The position numbers and the translations under genes are program-made. The notes below the pieces were generated by a model that worked only from the letters and a program-made list of their open reading frames with translations, searched no databases and was not told the origin of the DNA. A DNA stretch of 24,000 nt from Thermococcus sp. (lineage in GTDB: Archaea; Methanobacteriota_B; Thermococci; Thermococcales; Thermococcaceae): positions 28,095 to 52,094 of the forward strand of contig JAMOTW010000033.1 in assembly GCA_027062125.1 (NCBI GenBank). Direction: 5' to 3'. Of this stretch, positions 2,937 to 20,031 are shown piece by piece. How positions within the stretch are numbered: position 1 is the first letter of the stretch; every line of letters begins with the position of its first letter.

Positions 2937-3257
2937 TCAACCGAAGAGGGCGCCGAGTCCAGCGAGGGCCTCCTCCTCGCTGGCCTCCTCTTCCTCTTCC
3001 TCCTCTTCCTCAGCGGCGGCCTCAGCGGCGCCACCCTCAGCGGCCGGAGCGGCGGCAACGGCAACCGGGGCGGCAACCGGCATGGCGGCCTTCTCGATGA
3101 CCTCGTCGATGTTAACGCCCTCAAGGGCGGCAACGAGGGCCTTTATCCTGGCCTCGTCCGGGCTAACACCAGCGGCCTCAAGCACAGCCTTGAGGTTCTC
3201 CTCGGTTATCTCCTTACCAGCGGCGTGGAGCAGCAGAGCGGCATACACGTACTCCAT
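2937..3257 (-). CDS. rpl12: 50S ribosomal stalk protein P1 (L12)
   Basis: [30 protein letters not shown]... followed by an Ala/Glu-rich tail ending [19 protein letters not shown] lies 7 nt upstream of the ATG at 3257. The track start at 3272 was rejected. Confidence 0.95.
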
Positions 3258-4362: not shown

Positions 4363-5013
4363 TCACCTCTCCACCTTAACGGCCGGTCCCATGGTGGTCT
4401 TGACGTACACTGACTTCACTTGGTTCTCGCCGCGCTCAAGCTTGTTGAGTATCGCGTTGAGAACCGCCTCGGCGTTCTCGGCGAGCTTCTCGTCCTCCAT
4501 GTTCTCGGTGCCTATCGGAGCGTGGACAACCGGGTTGTTCTTGAGCTGTATCCTCACTGTCCTCTTGAGCCTGGCGACTATCGGTTCGAGGTTGGTCATG
4601 GTCGGTGGAACGACCTGCGGCATCTTGTTCCTCGGACCGAGGTACCTACCGAGGTACCTACCGATCTTTGGCATCAGCGGAGCCGCGGCAATGAAGAAGT
4701 CGTAGTTCTTCGCGAGCTTCCTGGCTTCCCTTGGGTTCTTTGCGAGCTCCTCAAGCTGCTCTCCACTAATCACATCAAGCCCGAGCTTTTTAGCCGCCTC
4801 GGCAACGGCACCATCAGCGATGACCGCGATTTTGGGCTCCTTCCCACGACCGTGGGGCAGCACAACCTCAAGCTTGAACCTGTTCTCAGGCTTCTTCAGG
4901 TCGATATCCTTGAGGTTGACTGCCATCTCGACGGTCTGTGTGAAGTTGCGCGGCTTAGCCCGGGCCTTCGCCTCCTTCACCGCTTCCACGATTTTCTGCC
5001 TGTCAAAGGCCAT
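4363..5013 (-). CDS. rpl1: 50S ribosomal protein L1
   Basis: [46 protein letters not shown]... is typical archaeal L1. AGGAGGG lies upstream of the ATG. Confidence 0.95.
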
Positions 5014-7559: not shown

Positions 7560-8378
7560 TCAGTCTCTTATAAACTCCAAGCCCAGCTCTTCAGCCAGGG
7601 CTCTGGCCATCTGCCGCGTCTCCCCCTTACTGCCCTTCCAGTCGACGTAAATGGCATCGACCTTGCCCCACGTCCTCTCCATTGCCTTCAGGATGAGCTC
7701 CCTGTCAAGTGGGTGGGTGTACTTCGGGGCTATGTGGCTGAAGGCGAGATTCGTCTCAAGGGCCCTCTTGGTCTGCTTCGGCGCGTAGTGGCCTCCTCCG
7801 ATTCCAATCGCAACCGGGAACTCGGCCTTCTCGTAGTTTTCAAGGACGTGAACTATGGTTTCCACTATTATCTCCCCCGCCCTGTCGTTGACCCACTCCT
7901 CCTCACTTGATCCTATCTCTATGAAGAGGCTCGGAACCTCGAGCTCGCTCGGCCCGTGGTGGGTCGCCTCGTAGCAGACTGTCCAGCCGAGATCGTTCAG
8001 CTCGTTCATCTTCATGAGGGCAAGCTTCATGGCGGCTGGATGAGCAATTGCCAGGCTCCTATCCTTTCCGCCGTACATCGCCTTTCCCCAGTTGCCGGTT
8101 ACGTGGGTGGTTAAAGCTGGGAGCTTCTGCTTGCTCGAGTGCCTTGAAGCGAAGACTATTATCTCCGGCCTCTCCCCGAGCTGCCTCTCTATCTCAGCGT
8201 CGAGGTTGTCGTAATAGATCATCTCATCGTTGGTGGTCAGAATCAGGGCCTCCCCTCTGGAGTAGACGGGATTACCGTCAAAGACATCATCGAGTTCCTT
8301 GAACCCAAAATTCTCCACCAGTTTCTCCCTTATGTTCATCGAGGCGAGGTCAATTTTCGTCGTCATGATAACCTTCAT
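7560..8378 (-). CDS. dtdA: D-aminoacyl-tRNA deacylase, archaeal type (DtdA/DTD2)
   Basis: [20 protein letters not shown]...[22 protein letters not shown]...YEATHHGPS...GGGHYAPK matches the archaeal DtdA family as I recall it, at about 272 aa. AGGTGA lies upstream of the ATG at 8378. Confidence 0.8.
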
Positions 8379-16606: not shown

Positions 16607-16683
16607 GCCCCGGTGGCTCAGCCTGGCGGAGCGGCCGCTTGGTAAGCGGCAGGTCGCGGGTTCAAACCCCGCCCGGGGCTCCA
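16607..16683 (+). tRNA. tRNA-Thr (anticodon GGU), CCA encoded, no intron
   Basis: Manual cloverleaf. Acceptor GCCCCGG/CCGGGGC. D arm GCTC..GAGC. Anticodon stem GCCGC/GCGGC with loop TTGGTAA. T arm GCGGG-TTCAAAC-CCCGC. Discriminator T followed by CCA. Confidence 0.93.
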
Positions 16684-16688
16684 TTCTA

Positions 16689-16734
16689 CAAACTTCGCCT
16701 TCGCGAAGTTTGATCAAGGTCCGTGATTCCTTTT
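16689..16734 (+). repeat. Hairpin module M1 (+)
   Basis: CAAACTTCGC-cttc-GCGAAGTTTG (10-bp stem, 16689-16712), then ATCAAGGTCC, then GTGATTCCTTTT. It starts 5 nt after the tRNA-Thr CCA. Confidence 0.85.
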
Positions 16735-16829
16735 GAAAAGCGCGTTCTGGAGTGGATTTCTTTGAGAACCACTTCTTGGGCAGAAAGGAGATTTGCCCCA
16801 AAGAGGCGTATTCTGAGGGGGTTCAAGCG

Positions 16830-16858
16830 TTTTTGGCGCTCCTTTGGAGCGCTAAAAA
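16830..16858 (+). repeat. Central T5/GC-hairpin/A5 element of unit U1
   Basis: TTTTTGGCGCTCC-ttt-GGAGCGCTAAAAA forms a 13-bp stem including one G-T(U) pair. It is followed by GCCGAACC. The counterpart in U2 is at 17488-17537. Confidence 0.8.
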
Positions 16859-16949
16859 GCCGAACCCTTCTCAAACGAACTACAGGAAACGAAATCCATG
16901 TTGACCAAGTGAGAGCAATATCTGAAGAAATCCTCCAAACAAGCCACTT

Positions 16950-16995
16950 AAAAGGAATCACGACCTTTGCCCAGCAACTTTGCGCAGGCAAAGTT
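16950..16995 (-). repeat. Hairpin module M2 (-)
   Basis: The minus strand reads AACTTTGC-ctgc-GCAAAGTT, then GCTGGGCAAAGGTC, then GTGATTCCTTTT. Confidence 0.85.
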
Positions 16996-17039
16996 TTCTG
17001 TACTCTCAAACCCCCGTAGTGGGGCTTCGCCCACGTTAA

Positions 17040-17084
17040 GAAACTTTTCTGGGGAAAAGTTTCATCAAAACTGGCAGCCTTTTA
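17040..17084 (+). repeat. Hairpin module M3 (+), degenerate tail
   Basis: GAAACTTTTC-tggg-GAAAAGTTTC (10 bp), then ATCAAAACTGGCAGCCTTTTA. Compare M6: GATCAAAAGCTGGTGATTCTTTTT. Confidence 0.65.
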
Positions 17085-17149
17085 GGGTTGCTAACCTAGT
17101 TAGAGGTTTACTCTCAACTTGCTCGTTTTAGTTGGGGTTTCTTCTCCCT

Positions 17150-17172
17150 AGCGCCCTTCGGGCGCTGTTTTT
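17150..17172 (+). terminator. GC hairpin with TTCG tetraloop followed by T5 (intrinsic-terminator-like), near the symmetry axis
   Basis: AGCGCCC-ttcg-GGGCGCT then GTTTTT. It is oriented for + strand transcription. Confidence 0.4.
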
Positions 17173-17266
17173 AGACAACCCCTCACCAACAAGCTTTCAT
17201 GAAAATAAACCCCTAAACAAGAATGCCCACTTGACGAGGCATGCAACTACCCACATACTCTCTTAA

Positions 17267-17309
17267 CTACTCAAACTCCTTTGGTCAAGCTTTGCGCAAG
17301 CAAAGCTTG
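17267..17309 (-). repeat. Hairpin module M4 (-), tail partly deleted
   Basis: CAAGCTTTGC-gcaa-GCAAAGCTTG (10 bp, 17286-17309). The minus-strand tail ACCAAAGGAGTTTGAGTAG aligns to the M6 tail ATCAAAAG..TTTGAGTGG if the GTGATTC block has been lost. The orientation call is tentative. Confidence 0.45.
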
Positions 17310-17339
17310 CTGGGGGGCTAACGCCCCCACACCCCCCAG

Positions 17340-17395
17340 AACTTTGCCTGCGTAAAGTTTCTGGACAAAGTTTCGTCAAAGTTCGTGATTCCTTA
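17340..17395 (+). repeat. Hairpin module M5 (+)
   Basis: AACTTTGC-ctgc-GTAAAGTT (one G-U pair), then a spacer with a duplicated CAAAGTT, then GTGATTCCTTA. The hairpin is nearly identical to M2 read on the minus strand. Confidence 0.8.
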
Positions 17396-17487
17396 CTTAG
17401 AATTCGCTAGGCAACGGGGGGTTTTAGTTGAAATCTGCAATTTTGGCCGGATTCATTCCAAAAAAGGTAACCCTTGATAGGTTCGGC

Positions 17488-17537
17488 TTTTTTAGCGCTC
17501 CGGAGGAGCGCGGGTTGAAGTTGAACCCGCTAAAAAA
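17488..17537 (+). repeat. Central T6/GC-hairpin/A6 element of unit U2, with an extra inserted hairpin (three-way-junction-like)
   Basis: TTTTTTA + GCGCTCC-gga-GGAGCGC + CGGGTT-gaagttg-AACCCG + (c) TAAAAAA. It is preceded by GGTTCGGC, the reverse complement of the GCCGAACC that follows the U1 element. Confidence 0.8.
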
Positions 17538-17605
17538 CGCCCTTTCGACATGAATCCAACGTACAATCTAACCAATAAAACAAACCCCACCAAAACTGAC
17601 CACTC

Positions 17606-17653
17606 AAAAAGAATCACCAGCTTTTGATCAAACTTTTGCCCTGCAAAAGTTTG
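17606..17653 (-). repeat. Hairpin module M6 (-)
   Basis: The minus strand reads CAAACTTTTGC-agg-GCAAAAGTTTG (11 bp), then ATCAAAAGCTG, then GTGATTCTTTTT. It starts 5 nt after the tRNA-Pro CCA, mirroring M1. Confidence 0.85.
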
Positions 17654-17658
17654 TTTCC

Positions 17659-17736
17659 TGGTGGGGCCGCCGGGATTCGAACCCGGGTCACGGGCTCCCA
17701 AAGCCCGCAGGATGGACCAGGCTACCCTACGGCCCC
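17659..17736 (-). tRNA. tRNA-Pro (anticodon UGG), CCA encoded, no intron
   Basis: Manual cloverleaf on the minus strand. Acceptor GGGGCCG/CGGCCCC. Anticodon stem CGGGC/GCCCG with loop TTTGGGA (G37). T arm CCGGG-TTCGAAT-CCCGG. Discriminator A followed by CCA. Confidence 0.92.
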
Positions 17737-17777: not shown

Positions 17778-17813
17778 CGCTGGAAGCTTTTGGAAAAGCT
17801 TGCTCCGCAGGAT

Positions 17814-17821
17814 TTTTATAA
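17814..17821 (+). promoter_or_regulatory. TATA box candidate for topA
   Basis: TTTTATAA lies 30 nt upstream of the ATG at 17851, so the leader is short or absent. Confidence 0.5.
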
Positions 17822-17850
17822 CCCCCGGACTACCTTTTCAAGGTGTCGCC

Positions 17851-20031
17851 ATGGTCACGCTCATCATCGCCGAGAAGCCGAACGTCGCGAGAAAGATCGC
17901 CTACGCCTTAGCAGAGGGCAAGCCCGTGAGGAAGACGATAGGGAAGGTCTCCTACTATGAGTTCACCCGCGACGGCAAGAAGGTGATAGTCGCCCCCGCG
18001 GTCGGCCACCTGTTCTCCCTCGCCCCGAAGGTTAAAACCTACGGCTATCCCGTCTTCGACATCGAGTGGGTTCCCGTCTACGTCGCCGAGAAGGGGAAGG
18101 GCTACGCCAAGGACTACATCAAGGCGTTAGCCACGCTTGCCAAGCGTGCCGACGAGTTCGTGGTTGCCTGCGACTACGACACGGAGGGCGAGGTGATAGG
18201 TTACACGGCCCTCAAATACGCCTGCGGCGTCGATCCGTCAAAGGCAAAGCGCATGAAGTTCTCCGCACTCACGAAGAAAGACCTCCTCAAGGCCTGGTAC
18301 AACCTCGAGCCGACGATAAACTTCGGGATGGCCGATGCCGGAATAGCACGCCACGTCCTCGACTGGTACTGGGGCGTGAACCTTTCGAGGGCCCTAACCT
18401 CGGCGATAAAGCGTGCGAGCGGCAAATGGATGGTCCTCTCCACCGGCCGCGTCCAGGGGCCGACGCTTAAGTTCCTCGTCGACAGGGAGAGGGAGATAGC
18501 CAATTTCAAGCCCACCCCGTACTGGGTCATAAAGATGCTACTCGAGAAAAACGGGGAGCAGTACACGGCGGTCTACGAAAAGGAGCGCATCCTCGATGAG
18601 AACGAGGCGAAGCGCATCGTCGAGGAGGCTAAGAAGGGCCCGGCCTTCGTCGAGAAGGTCGAGGTCAAGCAGCAGAGGAGGAATCCGCCGGTGCCCTTCG
18701 ACCTCGGAACCCTGCAGAGGGAGGCCTATTCTGCCTTTGGATACAGCCCGAAGAAGACTTTGGAGCTCGCACAGAAGCTGTATGAACGGGGATTAACGAG
18801 CTATCCCCGCACCTCATCCCAAAAGCTCCCCAAGAACCTCAACTTCCGCTCCATACTCCAGAACCTGGCAAAGCTACCCGAGTACAAGCCCTTCGCCCAC
18901 GAGCTTCTTGGTAAGGAGAGGCTCAAGCCCGTCGAGGGCAAGAAGGACGACCCGGCGCACCCGGCAATCTACCCCACCGGGGAGCTTCCAAAGCCCGGCG
19001 AGCTTACCAAGGACGAGGCCAACCTCTACGACCTCATCGTCAGACGCTTCCTAGCCCTCTTCATGGAGCCAGCCGTCAGGGAGATAATGAAGGTCGTAAT
19101 AAACTCCAACTCCCACCGCTTCATCCTGAGCGGCGCGCGAACGGTTAAGGAGGGCTGGCTGAAGGTATACGGCAAGTACGTCAAGTTCGACGAGGTGATC
19201 CTTCCAGCCTTCAGGGAGGGCGAGCCGGTCAAGGTCATTCAGATAAAGCGCGAGAAGAAGAAGACGAAGCCCCCGGCAAGGTACTCTCCAGCGGCGGTTA
19301 TTAAAAAGATGGAGGACCTCGGCATAGGAACCAAAGCCACCCGCGCCCAGATTCTGGAGACCCTCTACAGCAGGGGCTACATCGAGGGCAAGAGAAAGAT
19401 AAAGGTCACGCCCCTTGGAATGCGCGTCGTTGAGGCTTTGGAGAAGAACGTGCCCGACATAGTCAGCGTCGAGCTCACGAGGGCCTTCGAGGAGAAGATG
19501 GAGGAGATAATGGCCGGGAAGGCTGAGAAGGAGCAGGTCATCGAGGAGAGCAAGAACCAGCTGATCAAAATACTCAAGGTCTTCAAGGAGAAAGAGATGG
19601 ACATCGGCAGGATACTCCTCGAGACGACCGGCACGGGGGTAACCAAGTCAAAGGCCCCCGGAGGGAAAGCGGGCGCGGTTAAAGAGCTCAGCGAGGAGGA
19701 AGAGCGCGAGGTTCAGAGGGCCGTTGATGGGAAGGCCGGTAATGAAAAGGCCCGGAAGCCCGAGAGGAAAGCCCTCATCATAGGCAAGTGCCCCAAGTGC
19801 GGCGGCGACCTGGTCGTCCGCTACAACAGGAAAACCGGTAAGAGGTTCGTCGGCTGCTCCAACTGGCCGAAGTGCAACGTAACCTACCCCCTCCTCCAGC
19901 GCGGCGAGATAATCCCGACGGACAAAACCTGCTGTGGCGGTGCACCCGTCGTTAAAATCCGCGAGAAGGGCCGCGAGTACGAGATATGCGTCGACATGAA
20001 CTGCAGGGACTGGAAGAAGGGAAAGAAGTGA
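17851..20031 (+). CDS. topA: DNA topoisomerase, type IA (archaeal Topo I/III) with C-terminal zinc ribbons
   Basis: The Toprim start [17 protein letters not shown], the active-site region [13 protein letters not shown], and the C-terminal [16 protein letters not shown] zinc ribbon. The track start at 17800 was rejected in favour of the ATG after AGGTG. Confidence 0.93.

Follow-up and report, generated by a model that had tools for sequence, protein, structure and literature searches.

Palindromic non-coding cassettes form a dispersed family at the 3′ ends of tRNA genes in Thermococcus

An array of three cassettes between convergent tRNA genes

We analyzed a 24,000-nucleotide stretch of Thermococcus DNA (assembly GCA_027062125.1, contig JAMOTW010000033.1, positions 28,095 to 52,094), referred to below as the window, in which the genes for tRNA-Thr(GGT) (16607-16683, plus strand) and tRNA-Pro(TGG) (17659-17736, minus strand) converge on a gap of 975 bp at 16684-17658. 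This gap, which we call the island, is a long-short-long array of three cassettes linked by GC-hairpin linkers. Both tRNA genes were identified by ARAGORN and by Rfam (61.5 bits to the tRNA family for tRNA-Thr), and both encode the terminal CCA. They bound the array closely: cassette 1 begins 5 nt past tRNA-Thr, and the outermost hairpin of cassette 3 stops 5 nt from the 3′ end of tRNA-Pro. The genes flanking the gap encode HARP, the protein-only RNase P (PIN_5), and a topoisomerase, with DctM among the neighbors. HARP of the window is 94-95% identical to HARP of T. cleftensis CL1 and Thermococcus sp. LS1; judged by its sequence, the source of the window is a Thermococcus near these two strains.

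The island is non-coding, as an initial annotation of the window had proposed from the sequence alone. Two overlapping open reading frames (ORFs) of 98 and 107 amino acids lie within it, neither of which has a Pfam match, and no open frame is kept across the 39 family members described below, in which the stop-free stretches vary from 40 to 104 amino acids. The same annotation had called for a comparison with Rfam. At both gathering and permissive thresholds this comparison returned the two tRNAs only, and the best of the other matches had E > 0.1, far under threshold; no Rfam family accounts for the island beyond the tRNAs.

The repeated element in the island is a module consisting of a hairpin, a spacer and a subterminal GTGATTC block. 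A profile built from the six modules matches the 24-kb window exactly six times (E values of 8e-14 to 7e-9), and all six matches lie in the island in strictly alternating orientation: 16688 (+), 16999-16941 (-), 17038 (+), 17311-17265 (-), 17338 (+) and 17654-17596 (-). The number and alternation of the modules had thus been described correctly, and their make-up in part: the hairpin is present in all six, GTGATTC is missing from the third and fourth (M3 and M4), and the spacers of the second and fifth (M2 and M5) are modified. Three GCGCYC hairpins (16836-16852, 17150-17166 and 17495-17511) and two GC hairpins (17019-17034 and 17312-17328) are located where the annotation had placed them. It had also described a two-fold symmetry, which is borne out by global alignment of 16684-17170 with the reverse complement of 17171-17658. 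This alignment contains 322 identities in 432 aligned columns and scores 357, compared with 214 ± 9 on average (z = 15) once the right arm is shuffled (200 mononucleotide shuffles), and with 242 when the two halves of the island are compared in direct orientation. Within the alignment, blocks are conserved and the sequence between them is not, again as described.

The natural unit of the island is neither the 45-nt module nor the 490-bp arm that had been suggested, but a cassette of about 280-315 bp lying between two inverted modules. Every cassette has two inverted terminal modules with stems of 10-11 bp and a central 7-bp GC hairpin, usually with subterminal GTGATTC. Two kinds of cassette end can be distinguished, type 1 (CAAACTTCGC..GCGAAGTTTG ATCAAGG..GTGATTC) and type 2 (GAAACTTTGC..GCAAAGTTTC ATCAAAG..GTGATTC). 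Since most complete copies pair one type-1 with one type-2 end, the cassette has a polarity. Read from its type-1 end, a long cassette is made up of the type-1 hairpin, ATCAAGGTTY, GTGATTC, a T-rich stretch, the inner blocks (a GAATTC-containing block and GGGTTY), the center GCGCTCC-TTC-GGAGCGC, the mirrored RAACCC, GAATTC and GAATCAC, and finally the type-2 hairpin GAAACTTTGC-loop-GCAAAGTTTC. Type-1 hairpins often have a short (T)TAC in front of them and TCAA behind.

Cassette 1 (16686-17000, 315 bp) is a long form, bounded by the module pair at 16688 (+) and 16999 (-), and aligns with 17 other long cassettes. Its type-1 end points toward tRNA-Thr and carries hairpin M1, CAAACTTCGC-CTTC-GCGAAGTTTG (16689-16712, plus strand), followed by ATCAAGGTCC and GTGATTC (16723-16729). 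Its center (16830-16858) consists of T5, GCGCTCC-TTT-GGAGCGC (16836-16852) and A5, and its distal module M2 (16954-16995, minus strand) contains GGAATCAC (16954-16961) and the hairpin AACTTTGC-GCAG-GCAAAGTT (16976-16995). Linker 1 (17001-17036), with the GC hairpin GTGGGGCTTCGCCCAC at 17019-17034, leads to cassette 2 (17037-17312, 276 bp), a short form without GTGATTC, in which M3 (17040-17063) and M4 (17286-17309) enclose the center AGCGCCC-TTC-GGGCGCT (17150-17166). Linker 2 (17312-17334), with the GC hairpin GGGGGGCTAACGCCCCC at 17312-17328, is followed by cassette 3 (17335-17655, 321 bp). This second long form contains M5 (17340-17359), GTGATTC (17385-17391), the center GCGCTCC-GGA-GGAGCGC (17495-17511), GAATCAC (17611-17617) and M6 (17629-17653), and its type-1 end points toward tRNA-Pro.

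A dispersed family at gene 3′ ends

The cassettes belong to a dispersed, concertedly evolving family that is fixed to the 3′ ends of genes, tRNA genes above all. A scan for the module pattern in one genome per species returned 112 stretches. Thermococcus or Thermococcaceae account for about 60 of these, spread over ~17 metagenome-assembled genomes (MAGs). The remaining stretches are chance bacterial matches, in which the module profile gives three marginal hits of 19-20 bits only (loci L015, L019 and L068). The scan itself returned MAGs only; the sequences of T. kodakarensis KOD1 and T. cleftensis CL1, which also contain modules, were obtained via HARP. The collection holds 103 distinct modules with stems of 10-11 bp at about 60 loci, and 39 complete cassettes. 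Cassette lengths cluster at 300-315 bp (core about 305-313 bp), with a second class of 276-279 bp that matches the middle cassette of the window. Copy number can be high: one MAG (JAMOQU01) carries at least 35 modules over 15 sampled 8-kb loci, and a second MAG contains a run of three consecutive cassettes. The T. kodakarensis island lies at 1249484-1250286 of its genome, between TKt21 and TKt22. No published description of the cassette family was found in the full-text literature, the coverage of which was incomplete; the initial annotation, too, knew of no described Thermococcales element of such architecture.

The initial annotation had explained the island as a single old local duplication with arms of about 490 bp. 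We compared the cassettes of the island with those elsewhere. Identity between cassettes 1 and 3 is 68%, and their mean identities to family members in other genomes are 69% and 66%, respectively. The symmetry of the island did not arise from a local duplication, because its two long cassettes are no closer to each other than to the copies of other genomes. The element is not restricted to the locus either. The nearest relatives of cassette 2 are cassettes of 277-279 bp at four other loci (L112, L047, L100 and L061), and even linker 1 has close to identical counterparts that join cassettes at unrelated loci of other genomes, with 12 module flanks in the linker-1 class. We therefore regard a locus-specific degenerate palindrome derived from an ancient inverted duplication as highly improbable: the family is dispersed, and T. 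cleftensis has one cassette at this locus. The symmetry comes instead from the quasi-palindromic form of the cassettes and from two cassette-bearing tRNA genes that face each other across a short-form cassette.

The position of the cassettes relative to genes is strongly constrained. At module-bearing loci, the outer hairpin lies 0-7 nt past the encoded CCA in 39 of 76 tRNAs, the 39 representing 22 anticodons and 13 amino acids, and it is always on the 3′ side. Another 13 tRNAs are followed by a related hairpin, hairpin B (CAGCCCTTGC-loop-GCAAGCGCTG, then GCGGAAAGTT), and the tRNAs with neither mostly have another tRNA or a co-directional ORF directly downstream. Array flanks are tRNA 3′ ends in 50 cases and tRNA 5′ ends in two; among the outer flanks of modules, 40 of 106 are tRNA 3′ ends. 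Either end of the cassette can abut the tRNA (about 25 type-1 and 13 type-2 ends by manual count). The association extends to a few other genes. A module adjoins the 3′ end of the H/ACA small RNA (sRNA) Pab160, another follows the stop codon of cbf5 in three genomes, and in two genomes a module follows the stop codon of a P1-like gene, whose likeness to acidic ribosomal protein P1 was judged by eye from the C-terminal residues. At the far end of single cassettes there is usually CAGCGCTGGCGGAAR, then 8-10 nt and a T run (CAGCGCTGGCGGAA...T-run). The CAGCGCTGGCGGAAR motif is also present downstream of hairpin B, there with T5 fixed at +45. Because the same motif follows single cassettes and hairpin B, the cassettes have the look of insertions that separate the tRNA from a conserved downstream motif.

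Several further observations were made at these junctions. In the type-B flank, the CCA is followed after 2-5 nt by CAGCCCTTGC-loop-GCAAGCGCTG, GCGGAAAGTT, about 8 nt and T5, the last lying between +43 and +46 in seven of ten cases; such flanks occur at L075, L040, L070, L052, L071, L003 (6650-6718), L113, L109, L110 and L001 (5960-6024). The inner stem of hairpin B covaries, a C.C mismatch in it is conserved, and the T. cleftensis hairpin carries an insertion of ~45 nt. The contig of L075 (JALUKO010000235.1) was binned as Helicobacteraceae and holds a Thermococcus-type module next to a type-B tRNA-Arg flank; it is likely a Thermococcus contaminant of the bin. Three modules abut tRNA-like 3′ ends (GGTTCAAAxCC...CACCA) that are GC-rich upstream and were missed by ARAGORN (L105, ~4680-4748; L063, ~7700-7771; L036, ~3135-3204), and these ends probably belong to intron-containing tRNA genes. 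At L083 (3792-3840), L021, L099, L110, L085 and L090, an insert of ~34 nt (TCCGTCAGGACGCTTGAACGAGGGTGAAAGCGGC) splits TTCCGCCA|GCGCTG right after a CCA. Since the TCCGTCAGGACGCTTGAACGAGGGTGAAAGCGGC insert falls there at several loci, 'CCA|' is a recurrent junction even where there is no tRNA.

Conservation of the hairpins and turnover of the cassettes

The hairpin stems are kept by compensatory substitutions. Across the 103 distinct modules, 1000 of 1035 stem pairs are Watson-Crick, and the loops vary freely, reverse-complement pairs such as CTGC/GCAG included. For the 25 distinct hairpins with a 4-nt loop, 98% of cells pair, compared with 85.7% in column shuffles, and none of 500 shuffles reaches the observed value; five of the ten stem pairs have changed on both sides. 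Conservation extends to the sequence of the outer stem, AAACTT/AAGTTT. Rare variants of the subterminal block (GTGGTTC, GTAGCTC) tend to sit at both ends of one cassette. One pair of orthologous flanks, those of tRNA-Val(GAC) at L059 (2740-2810) and L050 (6530-6600), differs by the loss of exactly the hairpin and spacer in one genome, about 34 nt from CAA|A to GTG|GTTC, with the remainder of the cassette retained. This loss shows that the hairpin can be removed cleanly.

Cassettes are closer to those of their own genome than to those of others, and the most similar pairs are mostly found within one genome. One MAG contains a pair of cassettes, behind tRNA-Asp and tRNA-Arg(GCG), whose identity of 99.7% extends from the tRNA 3′ end as far as ...TGGCGGAAAG, beyond which the two loci are homologous but diverged. 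The termination of the 99.7% block in older homologous sequence fits conversion of a segment between pre-existing copies. The same MAG has three tRNA loci with more than 500 bp of homologous flank in common. The content of the orthologous locus also turns over quickly: there are three cassettes in the window, one hybrid cassette in T. cleftensis, the HARP of which is 94% identical, and none in T. gammatolerans. In T. kodakarensis, tRNA-Pro is inverted relative to the window with an island of ~800 bp still attached to it, bounded by tRNA-Leu. HARP orthologues were only partly useful for collecting orthologous loci, as the neighborhood of HARP is not conserved; no tRNA lies beside HARP in Pyrococcus, Palaeococcus or T. 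argininiproducens.

Interpretation and relation to known elements

On balance, and with some reserve, we favor the reading that the island is built from three non-coding palindromic cassettes whose family is dispersed across Thermococcus and is best likened to the repetitive extragenic palindromes (REPs) and bacterial interspersed mosaic elements (BIMEs). Both are short non-coding palindromes, present in many copies just past gene 3′ ends, and both occur in strictly alternating clusters with few conserved spacer motifs, have no target duplication and evolve in concert. The spacers of the Thermococcus array are of two kinds, a long inner one with the central hairpin and the short GC-hairpin linker. 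In contrast to REP/BIME sequences, the Thermococcus unit is ~300 bp long rather than ~40-150 bp, belongs to hyperthermophilic archaea and is unrelated in sequence. Its association with tRNA 3′ ends is strong, and no HUH transposase of the type of the REP-associated tyrosine transposases (RAYTs) is linked to it: the 25 Pfam families with the most matches in 135 neighboring ORFs include no RAYT (HUH Y1)-type enzyme.

According to this reading, the cassettes would be located in tRNA transcription units, in their 3′ trailer or terminator zone; a single cassette usually sits between the CCA and the conserved CAGCGCTGGCGGAAR...T4-6 motif. Recombination would copy and homogenize them between tRNA loci, either through gene conversion or through recognition of the hairpin ends in trans, with the shared tRNA 3′ end as one possible anchor and the downstream motif as another. 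The cassettes may be tolerated, or they may be selected as gene-end or insulator elements that work in either orientation. As a by-product, different tRNA loci would come to share tracts of similar sequence, as long as a few hundred bp and near-identical in one case, that can support inversions between tRNA genes, and the window would represent the outcome when two cassette-bearing tRNA genes converge. A more specific proposal is that a hairpin-recognizing system of Thermococcus, whether a counterpart of REP/RAYT or an unprecedented one, places the ~300-bp cassettes at the 3′ ends of stable-RNA genes, and that the tracts of these cassettes, not the tRNA genes, are the substrate of inversion. 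We put this forward as a speculation that is unlikely to hold.

A number of results weigh against the family as we read it. The scan missed isolate genomes in spite of an exact match in KOD1 (L003, 6168-6192), so that our counts are lower bounds, and the loci were picked by the module pattern itself, so that the percentages of tRNA association are upper estimates. There is no sign of target-site duplication: the longest repeat shared by the two flanks averages 2.6 nt, compared with 2.2 nt in shuffled pairings, and has no common length. The 25 most-matched neighboring families are housekeeping only and include no transposase or integrase. A blastn search with the island had no match in plasmid and phage collections, and the module pattern had one chance match, without a hairpin, in the viral contigs of IMG/VR. 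The counts of G.T and A.C mismatches in the stems, 13 and 8, give no strand signal. In the common, type-A flank the position of T5 is variable, and in 11 of 36 flanks T5 is absent from the first 330 nt; hairpin B suits a role as pure oligo-T terminator, but for the common module this idea is weak. Finally, the terminal hairpins are AT-rich, and calculation for free RNA at 85 °C puts their dG at 0 to -1.4 kcal/mol. With dG so close to zero, they would need the context of a protein, a cruciform or single-stranded DNA. In our reading, pairing must be possible for this palindrome, a protein probably recognizes it, and it does not resemble a self-sufficient RNA hairpin.

Other explanations start from the same data. 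The cassettes could be selfish, non-autonomous transposons of the MITE-like (miniature inverted-repeat transposable element) or hairpin-end kind, mobilized in trans by an enzyme that would recognize the terminal hairpins, and specifically targeting tRNA genes and other stable-RNA genes at their 3′ ends. The inverted terminal modules, the fixed length, the subterminal variants that match at both ends, the nearly identical copies behind tRNA-Asp and tRNA-Arg(GCG), the copy number that differs between close relatives and the (T)TAC and TCAA next to type-1 hairpins are all consistent with this explanation, and a conserved stem kept by compensation is expected of a hairpin recognized by a protein. 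MITEs, which include archaeal examples such as those of Sulfolobus, are likewise small, non-coding and multi-copy, with inverted termini and subfamilies with matching ends. The cassettes differ from them in having neither a target-site duplication nor a parent insertion sequence, in ending in hairpins rather than plain terminal inverted repeats, and in their fixed position at gene 3′ ends. No transposase or integrase emerged from the neighboring families, and no longer, autonomous relative sharing the cassette termini was found in plasmids, phages, viral contigs or those same families. The identity block of the best pair ends as expected of gene conversion, and in each of four genomes the orthologous tRNA loci have a version of the element, which points to long residence and not to sporadic insertion. 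We consider a transposon unlikely, though a serious rival to the main reading, and we judge similarly a device selected by the host for gene ends, whether a bidirectional terminator, an insulator or a cassette for processing of the 3′ trailer, with dispersal as a secondary matter. Such a device would explain why the module is always 3′ and in fixed orientation to the upstream tRNA, H/ACA sRNA, cbf5 or P1-like gene, and why tRNAs ahead of another tRNA or a co-directional ORF have no module. The T5 at +45 in type-B flanks would fit as well, as would the T5-hairpin-A5 form of some centers, in which each strand has its T run ahead of the hairpin. In the differential RNA sequencing tables searched, the only transcription start site (TSS) in the KOD1 island is 1250217, antisense to tRNA-Leu (PMC4247193), so that transcription of the cassettes, if any, would be by read-through. 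On the other hand, type-A flanks have no consistent oligo-T, the terminal hairpins are marginal at growth temperature, a terminator needs neither 250 bp of extra cassette nor a distal inverted module, the distal side meets ORF 5′ ends as often as 3′ ends, and T. gammatolerans copes without an island at the orthologous locus.

A structured non-coding RNA as the product, either transcribed together with the tRNA and freed by 3′ processing or started at internal promoters, is in our view still less likely. RNAalifold predicts the terminal hairpins together with long-range pairings, GTGATTC with GAATCAC and GGGTTY with RAACCC, that have changed on both sides. T. kodakarensis has dicistronic tRNA-sRNA units (PMC4247193), and antisense 5′ ends lie 26-88 nt past the 3′ ends of four KOD1 tRNAs. 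However, the covariation may reflect just two lineages. The complementarity of an arm to its own partner (0.65) hardly exceeds that to the arms of other cassettes (0.64), without the real excess expected from coevolution as one long hairpin. Either orientation of the cassette abuts the tRNA, there is no Rfam match, the AT-rich stems are unlike those of stable RNAs of hyperthermophiles, and the KOD1 island has no reported TSS except the antisense one. We find it very hard to credit that the island is a remnant of an integrated element targeting tRNA genes (att site with split integrase), or a replication origin with boxes resembling the origin recognition box (ORB). Integrated elements of this kind abut tRNA 3′ ends and are numerous in Thermococcales (PMC5495485, PMC8371274), and a few blocks of the island loosely recall ORB motifs by eye. 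But there is no coding remnant, the architecture is palindromic, and no similarity to Thermococcales plasmids or viruses was found. The junctions, inspected by eye and without a systematic search, show neither an integrase fragment nor a direct repeat of part of a tRNA, and the sole string resembling a tRNA end (CTTTCCGCCA) is inverted and AT-rich. As for an origin, no Orc1/Cdc6 domain is present among the ten large window ORFs scanned, and the element occurs at many loci per genome.

Returning to the REP/BIME-like family, its place next to tRNA genes invites comparison with elements that home to tRNA genes, such as tyrosine-integrase elements, Tn7-like and type V-K CRISPR-associated transposons (CASTs), the TRE elements of Dictyostelium and Ty3 of yeast. 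The likeness lies in the fixed position by many tRNA genes; those elements are large and protein-coding and have defined machinery, whereas the cassette is a non-coding palindrome of 300 bp. Thermococcales chromosomes undergo frequent inversions with breakpoints at tRNA genes. In the published model, an integrase acts on tRNA genes as well as on paralogous segments with 104 or more identical bp. Segments of this kind cannot come from different tRNA genes, which are too dissimilar; the cassettes would supply similar tracts at many tRNA loci. The family may thus be a source of the repeated DNA behind Thermococcales inversions, near-identical in the one pair seen. In T. nautili, two tRNA-Gly genes that share 176 identical bp have recombined there (Cossu et al. 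2017, PMC5495485), the shared stretch consisting of the tRNA 3′ half and the strictly conserved stretch directly behind it (PMC5495485). This substrate of the integrase Int-pTN3 resembles our loci in that the shared sequence runs from the tRNA 3′ half into the downstream flank, and differs in that the study treats the tRNA-Gly pair as paralogues and not as part of a repeat family (PMC5495485). A module follows tRNA-Gly(CCC) as well as tRNA-Gly(TCC) in the MAGs, and the T. nautili tRNA-Gly flank may be the cassette. Should the hairpins be recognized by a protein, this would be, to our knowledge, the first archaeal system resembling REP/BIME. Should they act as RNA, they would bear on how tRNA transcripts that already carry CCA are ended and processed in hyperthermophiles. 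The presence of the cassettes in T. kodakarensis, a genetic model, makes them accessible to experiment.

Three minor observations concern the sequence motifs and the surroundings of the island. Its blocks were compared by eye with C/D-box, H/ACA, Thermococcales glycolytic motif (TGM), SurR, Phr and ORB motifs, and no fit was found. Outside the island, between the divergent promoters of tRNA-Pro and the topoisomerase gene, there is an AAGCTT-type hairpin (GAAGCTTTTGGAAAAGCTTGC) at 17782-17803. In other genomes, a hairpin of this type stands ahead of type-2 modules at 10 of 106 module flanks, and for this reason it belongs to the same repeat vocabulary. The topoisomerase ORF (17800-20031) is listed with a TTG start at 17800, upstream of a TATA-like sequence, TTTTTATAA (about 17813-17821), which gives a protein of 743 amino acids in the window compared with 716 annotated in T. 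cleftensis. The true start probably lies ~50 nt further downstream, as in T. cleftensis.

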